Shown here: positions 38,501-58,011 of the stretch, piece after piece
Layout of the letters: every line of letters starts with the position of its first letter
Position numbering within the stretch: the stretch's first letter is position 1
Assembly: GCF_022846255.1 (NCBI RefSeq)
Contig: NZ_AP025682.1
DNA length: 64,000 bases
Reading direction: 5' to 3' (one strand)
Source: Escherichia coli
Lineage (GTDB): Bacteria > Pseudomonadota > Gammaproteobacteria > Enterobacterales > Enterobacteriaceae
Made by a program: the position numbers and the translations under genes
Notes under the pieces: model-generated
Seen by the model: only the letters and a program-made list of their open reading frames with translations
The model's database searches: none
Told to the model about the DNA's origin: nothing

Positions 38501-39202
38501 TTATTTCACCGTACCTAAAATTTCGATTTTCGCCGCTCTGGCTTTGACTTTACGTGACCAGATAGAGGTAAGAATTGGCACCAGAATCGAAGTCACAATG
38601 ACCGCCGTCGCTACCAGCGAAGTTGCTGCCGGAGCCATAGGTTTAAACGCAGGCACCATTTCTGCAATCAGCACAGGTGTCGCTACCGCGGCCCCTGCGG
38701 AACTGGAAGCGGCAATTCCGGCAGTGCCCAGAATAATCATCGTCATGAGCGGCCCGGACTCCAACGACATCAACACAAATGCCCCAGCTTCTTCTTTTGT
38801 GCCGTACTGCTGCATGATGGAAGCGTAAAGTCCGCCGTTGGTCATATCCATCGCCGCCACCAGCGCCAGCGTTGAAAGTCCGGCAAAGAATCCAACTTCA
38901 ACACCATGTTCCGGAATAATGCGCGAGGCAATTGCCGCAACCACCCACGCGACGGCAATTTTAGTTACCACCAGCGTACCGGATTTACGCAGTACCGTTC
39001 CCGTCGCGCTTAATTTTATTGACGCCCCCATGCAAAAAAACCACACCGCCAGAATGGGCACCGTACCGGTAATCATCCCGTTGGTGAATGATCCAAAATA
39101 TTTCCCCGCCCCCGGCGAGAAGGTGTGGCACAGTGCGCCAAGGAATAGCGGGACGAGCATCATCCCCCCCGGGATTTTCTCAATCGAGCGTTTTATCTGC
39201 AT
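38501..39202 (-). CDS. kdgT: 2-keto-3-deoxygluconate permease KdgT, apparently shortened by an in-frame internal deletion (233 aa versus about 327 aa recalled for K-12)
   Basis: N- and C-terminal segments look KdgT-like but the ORF is about 94 codons short; possibly nonfunctional. Confidence 0.6.
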
Positions 39203-46175: not shown

Positions 46176-46675
46176 GCCGGATGCGGCACAAGTGCCTTAT
46201 CCGGCCTACAGGTCAGCAACAGTTGTAGCCCTGATAAGACGCGACAGCGTCGCATCAGGCATTGATTGCCGGATGCGGCACGAGTGCCTTATCCGGCCTA
46301 CGGGTCGGCAATAGTTGTAGGCCTGATAAGACGCGACAGCGTCGCATCAGGCATTGATTGCCGGATGCGGCACGAGCGCCATATCCGGCCTACGGGTCGG
46401 CAATAGTTGTAGGCCTGATAAGACGCGACAGCGTCGCATCAGGCATTGATTGCCGGATGCGGCACGAGTGCCTTATCCGGCCTACGGGTCAGCAACAGTT
46501 GTAGGCCTGATAAGACGCGACAGCGTCGCATCAGGCATTGATTGCCGGATGCGGCACAAGTGCCTTATCCGGCCTACGGGTCGGCAATAGTTGTAGGCCT
46601 GATAAGACGCGACAGCGTCGCATCAGGCATTGATTGCCGGATGCGGCACGAGTGCCTTATCCGGCCTACGGGTCG
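46176..46675. repeat. tandem array of about 5.4 copies of a 92-bp BIME unit (two inverted REP elements per unit) between rhaA and rhaD
   Basis: unit starts at 46176, 46268, 46360, 46452, 46544 and 46636 with exact 92-bp period and a few point differences. Confidence 0.9.
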
Positions 46676-49649: not shown

Positions 49650-50204
49650 TTACGACTTCGTGACATATCCGTGCTCATCACAAACCCGCCCCGCGATTAC
49701 AATTAACTGAAATATTTCATCGACCATTTCGTTGTAATCGCATAACGCTCGTGGAAATGAGTCTTCGGCCATCCAGCTTGAGTTTGCGTCCTGAAGTTGC
49801 TCTTTATCCCAGTCAGAGTACGGGACTTTATCTCTGATGCGGCGAACGTATTTTTTAGCCTCGAGTTGATACTGGCCTGCCGAATTAATAAACGAGAAAC
49901 TCATGCCGCTTTTATCCGCTTCTTTGGCTTGCGCCACCAGCGTTTCCAGTTCAGACACTTTCTTCATTGCCGCTTCTGCATCTAACTTATCTTGCGATAT
50001 CAGGTTATTAATTTGTTTCGCTGAAATCATGACTGCCAGAGAGTAGTAGTGGAATGTTTTCCCTTTCGCAAACGCATCGTCTTTATAATTTTCCTGGGTG
50101 TAATATTTATCCATTTCGTTAATGGTATTACCCAACGCTACGGCAGCATCAATATAACTCACCGCCACGCCATCAATAGGTTGCAGCGCAGGCGTTAACG
50201 CCAC
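49650..50204 (-). CDS. hypothetical protein, possibly a gene remnant (GTG start, no SD, no signal peptide)
   Basis: 184-aa ORF starting 88 bp downstream of fdhD; sits where K-12 has yiiG. Confidence 0.3.
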   Translation of the reverse strand: MALTPALQPIDGVAVSYIDAAVALGNTINEMDKYYTQENYKDDAFAKGKTFHYYSLAVMISAKQINNLISQDKLDAEAAMKKVSELETLVAQAKEADKSGMSFSFINSAGQYQLEAKKYVRRIRDKVPYSDWDKEQLQDANSSWMAEDSFPRALCDYNEMVDEIFQLIVIAGRVCDEHGYVTKS

Positions 50205-50291
50205 TACACGCGTTTTGTTTATGAGAAAATAACAAAATTCACGAAATGAATAAGTCCTGTAATTTAATATATATCGCAGGACTTATTTTAA

Positions 50292-51125
50292 TTAATTGCT
50301 CAAACGCTGCGGATGGGTATAAACCGTTGCCCGACCCGGTTTACAAAAGCCCACCAGCGTCAGATTACAGCGCTCAGCCACTTCTACAGCAAGTGTGGTC
50401 GCGGCAGACACCGCAAACAAAATCTCTACGCCGCACATCGCCGACTTTTGCACCATTTCATAACTGGCACGGCTGGAAACCAGCACCGCACCTTGCTGCC
50501 AGCTTTCCCCTTCTTGTGACCGGCGGCCTAACAGTTTGTCCAGCGCCACATGGCGACCCACGTCTTCATGCCCGCCGACCAGTTCGCCAGATGGCAACAT
50601 CCATGCAGCGGCGTGAGTACAACCAGTCAGTTGCCCCACTGGCTGGAAATCATTGAGATGACGTAATGCATCATCCAGTTTGTTGAGATCAAACATCTGG
50701 GTGAACGGCAGCGGCTGCACCGGTTTACCGATATCGTTAAGCTGTTCTACACCGCATACGCCACAGCCCGTACGTCCCGCCAGCGCCCGGCGGCGCTCCT
50801 TCAACCCCATAAAGCGGCGGCTGGAAAGCTCAATTTGTACTTCCAGGCCATTACAGGAAGGAACGACATCCATGCCGAAGATATCGCGCGGGCTTTCGAT
50901 AATTCCTTCGGAAAGCGAAAAACCGAGCGCAAAGTACTCAAGGTCTTTGGGCGACGCCATCATCACCACATGCGAAATACCGTTGTAGACCAGCGCAACG
51001 GGAACTTCTTCCGCCACCTCATCTAACCGTGGGTGTTGTAAATCATCACGCCGCCATAACTCAATTTGACGAACACCTGTGATATTTGTCACATTTTCGA
51101 TTTCTTTTTGCTGTGTTTTTTTCAC
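50292..51125 (-). CDS. fdhD: sulfurtransferase / formate dehydrogenase accessory protein FdhD
   Basis: 277 aa, [28 protein letters not shown]; divergent from fdoG. Confidence 0.95.
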
Positions 51126-51318
51126 TTTCTCTTAACCAGATAAGAACACACACACCAACATTATGGTATTCTGTTACAAACCCTTCCTGGATGGAGGGAA
51201 ATTGAGCCAATTCTGGACCTTTGCGGCCCCTTCCGCAAAGAAAAATAACTCCCACTCCCTGCACACTCAGCAAGCGAATGTAAATGGGACGTGACAATGT
51301 CGAAACAAGGAGCAATCC

Positions 51319-54300
51319 ATGCAGGTCAGCAGAAGGCAGTTCTTTAAGATCTGCGCTGGCGGTATGGCAGGCACCACGGCGGCGGCACTGGGTTTTGCAC
51401 CCAGCGTAGCACTCGCGGAAACCCGGCAGTATAAACTGCTGCGCACCCGCGAAACCCGTAATACCTGCACCTATTGTTCCGTAGGCTGTGGGCTGTTGAT
51501 GTACAGCCTCGGTGACGGAGCAAAAAACGCCAAAGCATCTATCTTCCATATCGAAGGTGACCCGGATCACCCGGTCAACCGCGGAGCACTTTGTCCGAAA
51601 GGCGCTGGCCTGGTGGATTTCATCCACTCCGAAAGCCGTCTGAAGTTTCCGGAATACCGTGCGCCAGGTTCTGATAAATGGCAGCAAATCAGTTGGGAAG
51701 AGGCGTTTGATCGCATCGCCAAACTGATGAAAGAAGACCGCGATGCAAACTACATTGCGCAAAACGCCGAAGGCGTGACTGTTAACCGCTGGCTCTCCAC
51801 CGGGATGCTGTGTGCTTCCGCGTCGAGTAACGAAACCGGCTATTTAACGCAAAAATTCTCCCGCGCGCTGGGTATGCTCGCGGTCGACAACCAGGCGCGT
51901 GTCTGACACGGACCAACGGTAGCAAGTCTTGCTCCAACATTTGGTCGCGGTGCGATGACCAACCACTGGGTCGACATCAAGAATGCCAACCTCGTCGTGG
52001 TGATGGGCGGTAACGCCGCTGAAGCTCACCCGGTCGGGTTCCGCTGGGCGATGGAAGCCAAAATTCACAACGGCGCGAAGCTGATTGTGATCGATCCTCG
52101 CTTTACGCGTACGGCGGCGGTGGCTGACTACTATGCCCCTATCCGTTCCGGTACTGACATTGCTTTCCTGTCAGGCGTATTGCTGTACCTGCTGAACAAT
52201 GAAAAATTCAACCGCGAATACACCGAAGCCTATACCAACGCCAGCCTGATCGTGCGTGAGGATTACGGCTTTGAAGATGGCCTGTTCACCGGCTACGACG
52301 CGGAAAAACGCAAGTACGATAAGTCCACCTGGACTTACGAACTGGACGAAAACGGCTTCGCCAAACGCGATACTACCCTGCAACATCCACGTTGCGTGTG
52401 GAACTTGCTGAAACAGCACGTTTCCCGCTACACGCCAGATGTGGTTGAAAACATCTGTGGTACGCCAAAAGACGCATTCCTGAAAGTCTGCGAATACATC
52501 GCCGAAACCAGTGCTCACGATAAAACAGCGTCGTTCCTCTACGCCCTCGGCTGGACGCAACACTCCATCGGTGCGCAGAACATCCGTACGATGGCGATGA
52601 TCCAGTTGCTGCTCGGCAATATGGGGATGGCTGGCGGCGGCGTTAACGCCCTGCGCGGTCACTCCAATATTCAGGGGCTGACCGACCTGGGGCTGCTGTC
52701 GCAGAGTCTGCCAGGTTACATGACGTTGCCAAGCGAGAAGCAGACCGATCTGCAAACTTACCTCGCTGCCAACACGCCAAAACCACTGCTGGAAGGCCAG
52801 GTCAACTACTGGGGCAACTACCCGAAATTCTTCGTCTCAATGATGAAGGCATTCTTTGGTGATAAAGCGACGGCGGAAAATAGCTGGGGCTTTGACTGGT
52901 TGCCGAAGTGGGATAAAGGCTACGACGTCCTGCAATACTTCGAGATGATGAAAGAGGGCAAGGTCAATGGCTATATCTGCCAGGGCTTTAACCCTGTTGC
53001 CTCATTCCCGAACAAAAACAAAGTGATCGGCTGTCTGTCGAAGCTGAAATTCCTCGTAACTATCGACCCGCTGAACACTGAAACCTCTAACTTCTGGCAG
53101 AACCACGGTGAGCTGAACGAAGTTGACTCGTCGAAGATCCAGACCGAAGTGTTCCGTCTGCCATCGACCTGCTTCGCGGAAGAGAACGGTTCAATCGTTA
53201 ACTCTGGTCGCTGGTTGCAATGGCACTGGAAAGGTGCGGACGCCCCGGGGATTGCGCTGACTGATGGCGAGATCCTCTCCGGTATCTTCCTGCGCTTGCG
53301 CAAGATGTATGCCGAACAGGGTGGTGCGAACCCGGACCAGGTGCTGAACATGACCTGGAACTACGCCATTCCGCATGAGCCATCTTCAGAAGAAGTGGCA
53401 ATGGAGAGCAACGGCAAAGCGCTGGCCGATATTACCGACCCGGCAACCGGTGCGGTTATCGTCAAGAAAGGCCAACAACTTAGCTCGTTCGCCCAACTGC
53501 GCGATGACGGTACAACCTCCTGTGGCTGCTGGATTTTCGCCGGTAGCTGGACGCCGGAAGGCAACCAGATGGCGCGTCGTGATAACGCCGATCCGTCTGG
53601 CCTCGGTAACACGCTGGGCTGGGCATGGGCATGGCCGCTTAACCGCCGCATTCTGTATAACCGCGCCTCCGCAGATCCGCAGGGTAACCCATGGGATCCG
53701 AAGCGTCAGTTGCTGAAATGGGACGGCACTAAGTGGACCGGCTGGGATATTCCGGATTACAGCGCAGCGCCTCCGGGCAGCGGCGTAGGGCCGTTTATCA
53801 TGCAGCAGGAAGGCATGGGACGTCTGTTTGCCCTCGATAAGATGGCGGAAGGTCCGTTCCCGGAACACTACGAGCCGTTTGAAACGCCGCTGGGAACTAA
53901 CCCGCTGCATCCAAACGTTATCTCGAACCCGGCGGCGCGTATCTTTAAAGACGACGCCGAAGCATTGGGTAAAGCCGATAAGTTCCCGTATGTCGGAACC
54001 ACCTATCGTCTGACCGAGCACTTCCACTACTGGACCAAACACGCGCTGTTGAATGCGATTTTGCAACCAGAGCAGTTTGTGGAAATCGGGGAGTCGCTGG
54101 CGAATAAACTTGGCATTGCCCAGGGCGATACTGTGAAAGTCTCCTCCAACCGTGGCTATATCAAAGCCAAAGCGGTAGTGACCAAACGTATTCGCACGCT
54201 GAAAGCAAACGGCAAAGATATCGATACCATCGGTATTCCGATTCACTGGGGCTATGAAGGTGTTGCGAAAAAAGGCTTTATTGCCAATACGTTGACGCCA

Positions 54301-54369
54301 TTCGTCGGTGATGCGAACACGCAGACGCCGGAGTTTAAGTCCTTCCTTGTGAATGTGGAAAAGGTGTAA
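51319..54369 (+). CDS. fdoG: formate dehydrogenase-O major subunit; selenoprotein with in-frame UGA (Sec) at 51904-51906; Tat signal
   Basis: the two ORF-track pieces are in the same frame and separated only by TGA; RRQFFK Tat motif; 1016 aa if the UGA is read through. Confidence 0.95.
51907..51950 (+). other. candidate bacterial SECIS stem-loop directing Sec insertion at the fdoG UGA
   Basis: hairpin-forming sequence immediately 3' of the UGA (gcaagtcttgct core). Confidence 0.6.
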
Positions 54370-54381
54370 CGGAGACGACAT

Positions 54382-55284
54382 ATGGCTTATCAATCGCAAG
54401 ATATCATTCGTCGTTCCGCGACTAACGGTCTGACCCCCGCGCCTCAGGCGCGGGACTTCCAGGAAGAAGTGGCGAAACTCATCGACGTTACCACCTGTAT
54501 CGGCTGTAAAGCCTGTCAGGTGGCGTGTTCAGAGTGGAACGACATTCGCGATACCGTCGGCAATAACATTGGGGTGTACGACAACCCCAATGATTTAAGT
54601 GCCAAATCGTGGACGGTGATGCGATTCTCGGAAGTGGAGCAGAACGACAAACTGGAATGGCTGATCCGCAAAGACGGCTGTATGCACTGTTCCGATCCAG
54701 GCTGCCTGAAAGCGTGCCCGGCGGAAGGGGCAATTATTCAGTATGCCAACGGTATCGTCGACTTCCAGTCCGAGCAGTGCATCGGCTGCGGTTATTGCAT
54801 TGCGGGCTGTCCGTTCGACATTCCGCGCCTCAACCCGGAAGACAACCGCGTCTACAAATGTACGTTGTGCGTTGACCGCGTGGTGGTTGGGCAAGAACCG
54901 GCCTGCGTGAAGACCTGCCCAACGGGCGCGATTCACTTCGGTACGAAAGAGTCGATGAAAACGCTGGCGAGCGAGCGCGTGGCGGAGCTGAAAACCCGTG
55001 GTTACGACAATGCGGGTTTGTACGACCCGGCAGGCGTCGGTGGTACACATGTTATGTACGTGCTGCACCATGCTGACAAGCCAAATCTGTATCATGGCTT
55101 GCCGGAGAACCCGGAAATCAGCGAAACCGTGAAATTCTGGAAAGGCATCTGGAAACCGCTCGCAGCTGTTGGCTTTGCGGCTACCTTCGCAGCCAGTATC
55201 TTCCACTACGTGGGTGTCGGTCCGAACCGTGCGGATGAGGAAGAGAATAATCTGCACGAAGAGAAAGACGAGGAGCGCAAATGA
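54382..55284 (+). CDS. fdoH: formate dehydrogenase-O iron-sulfur subunit
   Basis: 300 aa, four ferredoxin-type Cys clusters, C-terminal TM. Confidence 0.95.
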
Positions 55285-55916
55285 AACGACGTGACACCAT
55301 CGTGCGCTACACCGCGCCGGAACGTATCAACCACTGGATCACCGCCTTCTGCTTCATCCTGGCGGCGGTGAGCGGGCTGGGCTTTTTGTTCCCGTCCTTC
55401 AACTGGTTGATGCAAATCATGGGCACACCGCAGCTGGCGCGCATTCTGCACCCGTTTGTCGGCGTGGTTATGTTTGCCTCGTTCATCATCATGTTTTTCC
55501 GTTACTGGCATCACAACCTAATCAATCGGGATGATATCTTTTGGGCGAAGAATATTCGTAAGATCGTCGTCAACGAGGAAGTAGGTGACACCGGGCGTTA
55601 TAACTTCGGTCAGAAATGCGTTTTCTGGGCGGCGATTATTTTCCTGGTTCTGCTGCTGGTGAGCGGCGTGATTATCTGGCGTCCTTATTTTGCGCCTGCT
55701 TTCTCAATCCCGGTGATCCGATTCGCGTTAATGCTGCATTCATTTGCCGCAGTGGCGTTAATTGTGGTTATCATGGTGCATATCTACGCCGCCCTTTGGG
55801 TGAAAGGCACGATTACCGCCATGGTGGAAGGATGGGTGACCAGCGCCTGGGCGAAGAAACATCACCCGCGCTGGTACCGTGAGGTCCGCAAGACAACGGA
55901 AAAGAAAGCTGAATGA
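55281..55916 (+). CDS. fdoI: formate dehydrogenase-O cytochrome b556 subunit
   Basis: 211 aa, four TM helices. Confidence 0.95.
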
Positions 55917-56842
55917 GTATTCGCATAATCCCGCAAGATGAGCTGGGTTCGAGCGAGAAACGTACGGCGGATATGATTCCGCCGTTATTGTTCCCTCGGC
56001 TCAAGAATTTATACAACCGCCGCGCCGAGCGTCTGCGCGAGCTGGCAGAAAATAATCCGCTGGGTGATTACCTGCGCTTTGCTGCGCTTATCGCCCACGC
56101 CCAGGAAGTGGTGCTGTACGACCATCCGCTGGAAATGGATTTGACCGCACGCATTAAAGAAGCCAGCGCACAAGGCAAGCCCCCGCTGGATATTCACGTT
56201 CTGCCGCGTGATAAGCACTGGCAAAAGCTGCTGATGGCGCTGATTGCTGAGCTGAAACCTGAAATGAGCGGCCCGGCGCTGGCAGTGATTGAGAATCTGG
56301 AGAAGGCATCGACTCAGGAGCTGGAAGATATGGCCAGCGCACTGTTTGCCTCTGATTTCTCGTCCGTCAGCAGCGATAAAGCGCCGTTTATCTGGGCTGC
56401 GCTGTCGCTCTATTGGGCGCAGATGGCTAATCTGATCCCCGGCAAAGCCCGCGCTGAATACGGCGAACAACGTCAATATTGCCCGGTATGTGGCTCTATG
56501 CCGGTGTCCAGCATGGTGCAAATTGGCACCACTCAGGGTCTGCGTTACCTGCACTGCAACCTGTGTGAAACTGAATGGCACGTAGTGCGCGTAAAATGCA
56601 GCAACTGTGAACAGAGCGGCAAACTGCATTACTGGTCGCTGGATGACGAACAGGCCGCGATTAAAGCCGAAAGCTGCGATGACTGCGGCACTTACCTGAA
56701 GATTCTTTATCAGGAAAAAGAACCGAAAGTTGAAGCCGTGGCAGATGACCTCGCCTCTCTGGTACTGGACGCGCGAATGGAGCAAGAAGGCTATGCCCGT
56801 AGTTCCATTAACCCGTTCCTGTTTCCGGGTGAAGGGGAGTAA
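55913..56842 (+). CDS. fdhE: formate dehydrogenase formation protein FdhE
   Basis: 309 aa, paired CxxC motifs. Confidence 0.95.
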
Positions 56843-56934
56843 TCTCTGACGTTTTCCGGGTGGCGCTGGTCGCCCGGATTACAGCTCATAGGGTGTGACG
56901 ACACCTGCTATTCCCGCAAAATCTCTCGTATTTC

Positions 56935-56974
56935 GCGAGGCGTTTTCCAGATATGATGTAACAGTTGCAGTTAT
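56935..56974. repeat. repeat copy A: GCGAGGCGTTTTCCAGAT plus TGTAACAGTTGCAGTTAT
   Basis: first segment recurs at 59036-59053 (one mismatch); second segment recurs at 57397-57414 (one mismatch). Confidence 0.7.
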
Positions 56975-57057
56975 TATAAGTTCAAGTAAAACAGCCTTGT
57001 ATTAATACCAGAATAAGGGCATCTGGTTTTTTATATTCATGAATAAAAAAACTTTTG

Positions 57058-57276
57058 TCATTCCTTATGCTGCTTACATAGTTCTTCAACACCAACTGCC
57101 TCGTCCCTTTGCCTGCCGCCTTTTGCCTTACGCACCGGAAATTGCTGCCGCTCCAGATATTGCTCTACCGCTTCGCGTAAAATTGCAGAGCGCGAAACCT
57201 TACGCCATCCCCGAAGCTTGTTCAGCCGTTTAATTGCCTCTTCTGATAAATGAAGAAAAACCGTATTCATCGCCAT
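57058..57276 (-). CDS. ribbon-helix-helix (CopG-like) putative transcriptional regulator, YiiE/YiiF-like
   Basis: 72 aa from MAMNTVFLHLSEEAIKRLNKL; SD AAGGTGG upstream. Confidence 0.7.
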   Translation of the reverse strand: MAMNTVFLHLSEEAIKRLNKLRGWRKVSRSAILREAVEQYLERQQFPVRKAKGGRQRDEAVGVEELCKQHKE

Positions 57277-57374
57277 TACCACCACCTTACATATATTACT
57301 CATTAATGTATGTGCGAAAATTACGCCGGAAAGTTAATTAACGAAAGCGGATTTTTTCATATTGTTTTGTTTTT

Positions 57375-57414
57375 GCGAGACGGCATCCAAAGATAATGTA
57401 ACAGTTTCAGTTAT
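57375..57414. repeat. repeat copy B: GCGAGACGGCATCCAAAGAT plus TGTAACAGTTTCAGTTAT, upstream of the RHH gene
   Basis: contains tandem CAGTT pentamers; candidate operator. Confidence 0.6.
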
Positions 57415-57502
57415 TTCAATTGTTACTCAAAAATGGTTTATTACTTTTAATTAAGCGGGGGCACATCTACAGGAAAGAAACAACAAATAATAAGGATGAA
57501 TT

Positions 57503-57619
57503 ATGGATGCTATAAATATTTTATATTCAAGAATATTTTTTGATTGGGTCTTCATTTGCTTCATCAGGATGGTGTACCCGAAAAAGTCAGCAGCTTTACC
57601 GCACCAGGGTTTAAGGTGA
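57503..57619 (+). CDS. candidate small hydrophobic protein (38 aa), unannotated-type sORF
   Basis: SD TAAGGA 7 nt upstream of ATG; MDAINILYSRIFFDWVFICFIRMVYPKKSAALPHQGLR; stem-loop at 57637-57663 downstream. Confidence 0.3.
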   Translation: MDAINILYSRIFFDWVFICFIRMVYPKKSAALPHQGLR

Positions 57620-57671
57620 AATCTACCATTCATAACGACCGGTCAGTGCCGCACCAACCGGTCTTTAATTG

Positions 57672-57950
57672 TTAGTAGTAGTAAATTTGTGGATAACAGT
57701 CCGGGAACCAGACGATTCCTTCCGGATCATCCCCCTGCATTACCCGATGACATTGGCGTCGATCATCTGCGCGACGGCGAAGCGTAGTATAGAGCCGCTT
57801 CCATTCATGATCGCCCGGTGTACTGTAGTTTACCCAACAATCCATTGAAGGGTGACGCCATTTACCTGTAAGTGTTGGGATCCCTGAATGCTTATGCGGC
57901 TTCGCTTTACCATTACGATCCCTATCTTTACGCGTATTAAACGTGGACAT
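57672..57950 (-). CDS. hypothetical basic Cys/Trp-rich small protein (92 aa)
   Basis: strong SD AGGAGA 7 nt upstream of ATG. Confidence 0.45.
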   Translation of the reverse strand: MSTFNTRKDRDRNGKAKPHKHSGIPTLTGKWRHPSMDCWVNYSTPGDHEWKRLYTTLRRRADDRRQCHRVMQGDDPEGIVWFPDCYPQIYYY

Positions 57951-58011
57951 TTTTAGTCTCCTGTTAAGAGTTCTAAAAATGTGCTTCCTTAAAATAGTTC
58001 ATCATTTTCCC

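Follow-up and report, generated by a model that had tools for sequence, protein, structure and literature searches.

A UGA codon predicted to be recoded as selenocysteine makes the fdoG gene of Escherichia coli look broken

Does an internal stop codon that divides a long coding sequence mark a broken gene, a pair of genes or a codon that is read as an amino acid? The question is raised by a locus in the window, the whole stretch of 64,000 nt of Escherichia coli DNA that was analysed here. The list of open reading frames (ORFs) for positions 50000-58000 contains two pieces on the plus strand, 51319..51906 (195 aa) and 51955..54369 (804 aa), both in frame 1. Translating 51319-54369 of the plus strand in one frame, we found 1016 sense codons, a single internal stop at codon 196 and a terminal TAA. 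The internal stop is a TGA at 51904-51906. The first-pass annotation of this DNA had described the two pieces as lying in the same frame and split only by the TGA. It was right about the frame, and a frame change between the pieces, which it had named as the observation that would overturn its view, was looked for and is absent. The reading frame is indeed interrupted by the TGA alone, but the description needs one small correction, as the listed pieces lie 48 nt apart. These 48 nt (51907-51954) form 16 codons that are open and conserved, and the gap arises because the ORF lister resumes at the next ATG (51955). We found that the other two frames across the TGA junction contain stops or encode nonsense. 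A frameshift therefore does not explain the split ORFs, and this reading was rejected.

The gene and its neighbours were assigned as follows.
51319..54369, plus strand: fdoG, catalytic alpha subunit of formate dehydrogenase-O (single frame, TIGR01553, identity to K-12 FdoG, RefSeq).
50292..51125, minus strand: fdhD, accessory sulfurtransferase (TIGR00129, 338.8 bits, cut-off 140.9; annotated fdhD in the nearest genome).
54382..55284, plus strand: fdoH, iron-sulfur beta subunit (TIGR01582, 478.7 bits, cut-off 334.7; annotated fdoH in the nearest genome).
55281..55916, plus strand: fdoI, cytochrome b556 gamma subunit (NF007924, 453.3 bits, cut-off 341).
55913..56842, plus strand: fdhE, formate dehydrogenase accessory protein (NF002925, 604.1 bits, cut-off 426).

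With cysteine put in for selenocysteine (Sec) at position 196, the product matched the NCBIfam equivalog TIGR01553 (formate dehydrogenase alpha subunit) unbroken over residues 2-1015 (1575.5 bits, cut-off 814.2). At the amino-acid level it is 99.7% identical to K-12 FdoG, 76.8% to K-12 FdnG and ~22% to FdhF. K-12 fdoG (b3894) shares with the window gene its length of 3051 nt, the TGA at codon 196 and the same neighbours, and the order fdhD (opposite strand) followed by fdoG-fdoH-fdoI-fdhE is common to the window, K-12 and the nearest genome, E. coli RM14723. The E. coli fdnG gene is a paralogue at another locus, in fdnGHI beside yddG, and the gamma-subunit family scores of the two loci differ: the fdoI product passes the FDH-O model and reaches 243.6 bits on the FDH-N gamma model NF007558, under its cut-off of 339. 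Judged from sequence identity together with locus arrangement, the gene is the fdoG orthologue and not the fdnG paralogue. In RefSeq, the homologous locus is annotated as one 3051-nt coding sequence without a pseudogene flag. In most E. coli genomes of RefSeq, the NCBI PGAP label for the gene at the fdo locus is 'fdnG'.

The same comparisons bear on whether the two ORF pieces are two genes, with a 195-aa protein ending at the TGA and an 804-aa protein initiated independently at the in-frame ATG at 51955, which is the feature that makes such a pair conceivable. The fdoG ATG at 51319 is preceded, at a distance of 7 nt, by the Shine-Dalgarno sequence AAGGAG, whereas no Shine-Dalgarno-like sequence was found when one was looked for before the ATG at 51955. 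Moreover, the latter ATG encodes Met213, within the conserved motif GRGAMTNHW, the 16 intervening codons are conserved and align without interruption to a single protein chain (1kqf_A, the solved FdnG), and the match to TIGR01553 runs continuously across the junction. Two separately initiated genes are thus exceedingly improbable, and we treat 51319-54369 as one gene.

At the start of this gene, the translation contains an S-R-R-x-F-F-K motif.
51319..51417, plus strand: likely Tat signal peptide, MQVSRRQFFK...VALA, ~33 residues.
In the alignment to the FdnG chain 1kqf_A, this signal region (residues 1-33 of FdoG) falls on residues 1-33, and from general knowledge of FdnG and FdoG we take this N-terminal segment to be a Tat signal. 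The FdoG1 5' UTR thermometer (RF02778) was considered as a further element and rejected: it scored 31.9 bits against a threshold of 50 and aligned well only over the Shine-Dalgarno sequence and the first codons. The 5' region of fdoG (51272-51348) folded no better than its shuffles (z = -0.30), and a promoter and terminator scan of 51000-57200 returned fewer sites than in shuffled sequence. Of 5426 complete E. coli genomes, 5425 contain the 3.3-kb fdoG segment. Its best identity was 99.4% and most genomes fell at 95-99%, so the window comes from a less-sampled E. coli lineage.

We then considered the internal stop itself.
51904..51906, plus strand: UGA codon 196, predicted to be read as selenocysteine, the catalytic residue (the only internal stop; homologue alignment).
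The residues around it read DNQARV-U-HGPTVASLAPTFGR, with U standing for the UGA-encoded residue. The first 297 residues of FdoG, the part submitted to the comparison, align end to end with 1kqf_A, and the TGA position falls on the non-standard residue X196 of that structure. It also aligns to the X of Desulfovibrio FDH chains, which their depositors named 'selenocysteine-containing'. Residue 196 as Sec is presumably a ligand of molybdenum, as we take from general knowledge of the enzyme. Alignment with fdoG, fdnG and fdhF, which the first-pass annotation had proposed as a check, placed a TGA at codon 196 in K-12 fdoG and K-12 fdnG alike, and the UGA of K-12 fdhF at codon 140. These three genes are the E. 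coli genes for selenopolypeptides, and the literature backs selenium incorporation for E. coli fdoG in general (PMC4009273).

A nonsense mutation at codon 196 would leave fdoG a pseudogene whose downstream 820 codons are untranslated, and a plain ORF call, with its pieces of 195 and 804 aa, looks just like this. We found, however, that the same TGA is present in K-12 fdoG, in fdnG and in at least 115 loci of distant bacteria; among the related loci listed, 115 have TGA as the aligned codon and 5 have TGY (Cys). A 151-nt segment keeps an identity of at least 95% in 5424 E. coli records, and the RefSeq annotation carries no pseudogene flag. The changes that have accumulated beyond the stop also argue against decay. 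Window fdoG and K-12 fdoG are 97.5% identical in nucleotides, with 77 nucleotide differences. Among codons 197-1016, 70 are not the same in the two genes; 67 of these changes are synonymous and 3 are non-synonymous. The three residues (T337S, I417V and A483T; window residue, position, K-12 residue) all lie far from the recoding site. This ratio argues that the part beyond the TGA is translated, and comparison of the two sequences shows strong purifying selection on fdoG beyond the UGA. A pseudogene is recognized by a lineage-specific stop and by relaxed constraint downstream of it; here the stop is conserved in paralogues, across the species and in distant phyla. We therefore give a pseudogene almost no credence. 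The caution in the first-pass annotation against calling one is borne out by the conserved TGA, the downstream purifying selection and the single RefSeq coding sequence. What remained was to explain how an intact fdoG would be read through its UGA.

Sequence immediately downstream of the TGA matched a known class of RNA element.
51907..51949, plus strand: SECIS stem-loop inside the coding sequence, codons 197-211 (full SECIS_3 match at 51901-51959; minimum-free-energy hairpin).
51918..51935, plus strand: upper mini-hairpin GG-U-AGCAA-GUC-UUGCU-CC, presumed SelB-binding part (layout and spacing as in fdhF; covariation).
51907..51916, plus strand: 5' arm of the lower stem, pairing with 51941-51949 (in both the Rfam and the ViennaRNA structures, in differing registers).

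The Rfam model SECIS_3 (RF01989), whose gathering score is 63, aligned to 51901-51959 over all of its positions (1-59 of 59) with 84.3 bits. At E = 1.8e-19, chance does not account for this match. The SECIS elements of K-12 fdoG and fdnG each scored 84.3 bits on the same model, equal to the window. The window does not belong to SECIS_2, the fdhF type (RF01988), the threshold of which is 70 bits, as it scored no more than 28.1 bits on that model. When 51904-51950 was folded with ViennaRNA, the free energy was -13.8 kcal/mol. A hairpin-forming sequence after the TGA had been proposed in the first-pass annotation at 51904-51950; the fold and the SECIS_3 score agree with it, and the stem at 51907-51949 fits within those coordinates. 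The free energy of the hairpin gave z = -1.63 relative to shuffled sequences, 9 of 200 of which folded as well. As this z-score is weak, we relied instead on the covariance model and on covariation across species. All of the defining features that can be tested in sequence are present, and on this basis we assign the window as a bacterial SECIS-dependent recoding site of the SECIS_3 family.

The SECIS of fdhF is the bacterial SECIS that has been dissected experimentally, and we compared the window with it directly. In the window, the upper mini-hairpin begins 11 nt past the UGA; position 51920 is the bulged U, and GUC at 51926-51928 forms the loop. The K-12 fdhF element, GG-U-UGCA-GGUC-UGCA-CC, also starts 11 nt past its UGA. 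The two share a UGA followed by CACGG, the bulged U, a stem of 4-5 bp, G-U-C in the loop and a closing CC. They differ in the length of the upper hairpin, 17 nt in fdhF and 18 nt in the window, and in the stem sequence; K-12 fdhF scores 87.1 bits on SECIS_2, and its protein is ~22% identical to FdoG. SelB reportedly makes its contacts with the bulged U and with the G-U of the loop (Hüttenhofer et al. 1996; Liu et al. 1998; Fourmy et al. 2002).

To collect homologous loci, we took a single genome from each species and scanned it for a degenerate DNA pattern, Q-A-R-[VI]-(TGA/TGC/TGT)-H-G-P; the scan returned at least 120 loci. The pattern ends 14 nt into the SECIS, and the covarying columns of the upper helix lie outside it. 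The matches listed comprised 115 with TGA, 5 genuine homologues with a Cys codon and 1 chance match; the 115:5 ratio of TGA to TGY is no unbiased frequency, because the pattern demands conserved flanking codons and the loci are the matches listed only. Together with the window, the 115 gave 116 TGA sequences, from Gamma-, Beta- and Alphaproteobacteria, Acidobacteria, Actinomycetota and relatives of Desulfovibrio. Among the matches listed, all 7 pairs of the upper helix are standard in 109 of the 116 TGA homologues, the bulged U is kept in every one (116/116) and 114 of 116 have GUC or GUU as their loop. The stem itself occurs in at least 13 different versions among the TGA homologues listed.

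We next analysed covariation in the 76 distinct TGA-linked sequences among the matches listed, which come from Gamma-, Beta- and Alphaproteobacteria, Acidobacteria and Actinomycetota. In this set, 97.4% of upper-helix cells are paired and 4 of the 7 pairs vary on both sides. Pair 21:27 is AU in 40 sequences, CG in 31 and GC in 3. Pair 18:30 occurs as GC, AU or CG and pair 19:29 as GC or UG, while pair 15:32 changes from GC to UA in one sequence only. As a control, the partners were slid by 1-3 columns, and pairing over the whole structure fell from 89.5% to 50% or less. The varying stem positions are mostly third codon positions (Val GUN, Ala GCN, Leu CUN); the changes are therefore synonymous and compensatory.

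The homologues with a cysteine codon served as controls. Just 2-5 of the 7 upper-helix pairs are formed in the five TGY homologues, and none of the five (0/5) gave a SECIS match at the Rfam gathering score, compared with 5 of the 8 TGA loci tested. The TGA loci without a match were one from Bryobacteraceae and two of Desulfovibrio type with a differently placed hairpin. These results also bear on the idea that the UGA is read through without the Sec machinery, for example by a near-cognate Trp or Cys tRNA, with the hairpin merely slowing the ribosome. Low-level near-cognate read-through of UGA does occur in E. coli, and the stability of the hairpin alone is unremarkable relative to shuffles, as such a reading would allow. 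Against it, homologues have either TGA with the hairpin or a Cys codon without it; the hairpin matches a curated SECIS model; and the bulged U, the loop G-U and the 11-nt spacing are common to the fdhF element. In addition, solved homologues show X at the aligned residue, and the Desulfovibrio chains are named as containing selenocysteine. Read-through of this kind is accordingly most unlikely in our view, and we favour Sec insertion directed by the SECIS. The statement of the first-pass annotation that FdoG carries a UGA-encoded Sec with a downstream SECIS agrees with the 99.7% identity to K-12 FdoG, the SECIS_3 match and the covariation in 116 homologues among the matches listed, as far as sequence can speak to it.

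The lower part of the element was less well defined. In the Rfam register, the lower stem of the window sequence contains two non-standard pairs (A-G and A-C mismatches), and ViennaRNA preferred a shifted register with a bulged G. Across homologues ~83% of its cells are paired, and in the homologue alignment no double-sided covariation was found in the lower stem in either the Rfam or the ViennaRNA register. The evidence for the structure of the lower stem in the window SECIS is weak. Since the registers differ and covariation was absent, we do not claim a defined structure for it.

Constraint on the RNA was also visible in codon usage. In 21 loci of enterobacterial type, third-codon-position identity to the window was 0.97 over 60 nt from the TGA and 0.56-0.61 in the adjacent 60-nt bins, where amino-acid identity was still 0.92-0.94. 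The longest run of identity between the window and K-12 fdnG is 71 nt (51901-51971), against an overall nucleotide identity of 74.8%, and E. coli fdnG (FDH-N alpha, structure 1kqf) shares with the window both the codon-196 TGA and an identical 71-nt SECIS segment. Where window fdoG and K-12 fdnG encode the same residue, 60% of codons are the same. Over the stretch that begins 12 nt upstream of the TGA and ends 60 nt downstream of it, K-12 fdoG is identical to the window, and the nearest difference is at 51984. Furthermore, the 55 nt from the TGA are identical base for base in at least 18 loci of Escherichia, Citrobacter, Enterobacter, Klebsiella, Yersinia, Photorhabdus, Providencia and Superficieibacter. 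In clades outside that identical set, the stem varies freely through compensatory changes. The SECIS segment might be constrained beyond what the hairpin needs, through extra sequence-specific contacts (lineage-specific co-adaptation with SelB, or an interaction of the lower stem with the ribosome) or through repeated gene conversion that involves fdnG and fdoG and has the recoding site at its centre. We put this forward tentatively and regard it as rather doubtful.

Together, the findings described above lead us to conclude that 51319-54369 is almost certainly an intact fdoG encoding the Sec- and molybdopterin-containing catalytic subunit of FDH-O, with UGA196 recoded as Sec via the downstream SECIS; none of our observations speaks against this. 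That SelB binds, that Sec is inserted and that Sec196 serves as a ligand of molybdenum we infer from what is known of the sel system in E. coli. As a ribosome arrives at UGA196 (51904-51906), SelB would bind the downstream SECIS (51907-51949), with its upper mini-hairpin at 51918-51935. SelB-GTP carrying Sec-tRNA(Sec) would then deliver it to the A site, outcompeting release factor 2. Sec would be inserted at position 196, and translation would continue through another 820 codons. The element would act as the fdhF SECIS does. For fdhF, recoding of UGA with a SECIS by SelB has been reconstituted in vitro with an efficiency of 30-40% (PMC4513850). None of selA, selB, selC and selD lies in the 64-kb window, and a search of the window for tRNA genes returned none. 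The selA-selB genes occur in as many complete E. coli genomes as the fdoG segment does, 5425 of 5426, and on this species-level presence we assume that the source genome has the sel machinery.

The recoding feature in fdoG is already known and is an instance of textbook selenocysteine recoding, which has been established since the late 1980s and 1990s. The first-pass annotation had labelled it as a known feature, and rightly so; the SECIS is identical to the elements of K-12 fdoG and fdnG. Curated resources already cover it, in Rfam (RF01989), in RefSeq as a single coding sequence and, for the paralogue, in the structure 1kqf, and the finding makes no open question testable. Its value lies in annotation: recognition of a UGA together with its SECIS prevents naive ORF calling from splitting fdoG in two or labelling it a pseudogene.

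Around the start of fdoG (window 51319-54369, + strand), a sub-threshold match to a 5' UTR thermometer was seen. The Rfam family RF02778 (FdoG-1 5' UTR thermometer) matched at window 51150-51348 (+ strand) with 31.9 bits and E = 5e-5, which is below the gathering score of 50 for this family. The match aligned well in its 3' part alone, over the Shine-Dalgarno sequence and codons 1-10. When window 51272-51348 was folded, AAGGAGC was paired with codons 7-9 in the MFE structure, but shuffled sequences folded equally well (z = -0.30).

The ORF list also placed an ORF beyond fdhD:

49650-50204, minus strand, 184-aa ORF (555 nt)

In E. coli RM14723, the genome nearest to the window, a pseudogene of matching size (555 nt) and position, adjoining a carbohydrate porin gene, is annotated as 'DUF3829 domain-containing protein, incomplete, missing N-terminus'. 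K-12 carries full-length yiiG of 1056 nt at this site. A lineage-specific truncation or replacement appears to have taken place here, downstream of fdhD as read on that gene's own strand.

Alignment blocks between the window and RM14723 were 98.8-99.6% identical and otherwise collinear, with differences in length noted at two places. The first, at window 46211-46635, is a stretch of about 420 nt without counterpart in RM14723, located at the position of the rhaA-rhaD intergenic region. At its junction the overlap between the blocks is about 36 nt, and the extra segment may have arisen from a small repeat or from insertion of a mobile element. The second lies within kdgT, where about 264 nt of RM14723 are missing from the window at 38711-38728, with an 18-nt overlap of the blocks at the junction. 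In RM14723, kdgT is annotated as frameshifted. The window may hold either the intact form or the deleted form. Collinearity ended upstream of cpxP, where RM14723 carries a P2-like prophage with integrase, Cox and replication endonuclease; no alignment to the 20 kb of RM14723 compared was found for window 1-34783.

In other species, a TGA was present at the aligned codon in the FDH alpha genes of Candidatus Desulfovibrio gallistercoris (locus L033), Mailhella sp. (L066) and Bryobacteraceae (L014), and SECIS_3 had no match at gathering score in any of these three loci. Just 2-3 of the 7 pairs formed in the proteobacterial upper-helix register in L033 and L066, which have instead a shifted hairpin, GGCUCUGGCAGAGUC. 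This hairpin is a different SECIS sub-type. A tRNA match was found near the Sec codon at the Paracoccus amoyensis locus (L022):

9069-9148 of L022, minus strand, tRNA match, 80 nt, 52.9 bits

Relative to the FDH Sec codon, this match is placed about 850 nt upstream and is on the other strand. Clusters of fdoGHI-selABC with unusual tRNA-Sec placement are known in Alphaproteobacteria (PMC8124441).

Matches to the 151-nt Sec-codon segment of fdoG included 25 plasmid places. One match over the Sec-codon region was NZ_JBXULY010000002.1 150161-150283 (row H30). A divergent fdnG-like gene, with this region covered at about 75.6% identity, is present on a few E. coli plasmid records; selenoprotein FDH genes therefore occur on plasmids too.

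Finally, the alpha subunit of the fdo locus is called 'fdnG: formate dehydrogenase-N subunit alpha' in all listed RefSeq/PGAP E. coli rows, and the same label stands at locus L001 3220-6270. The genes beside it carry the names fdoH and fdoI, and the gene so labelled is the fdoG orthologue (99.7% to K-12 FdoG). An fdnG label on the fdoG orthologue could mislead the counting of paralogues.
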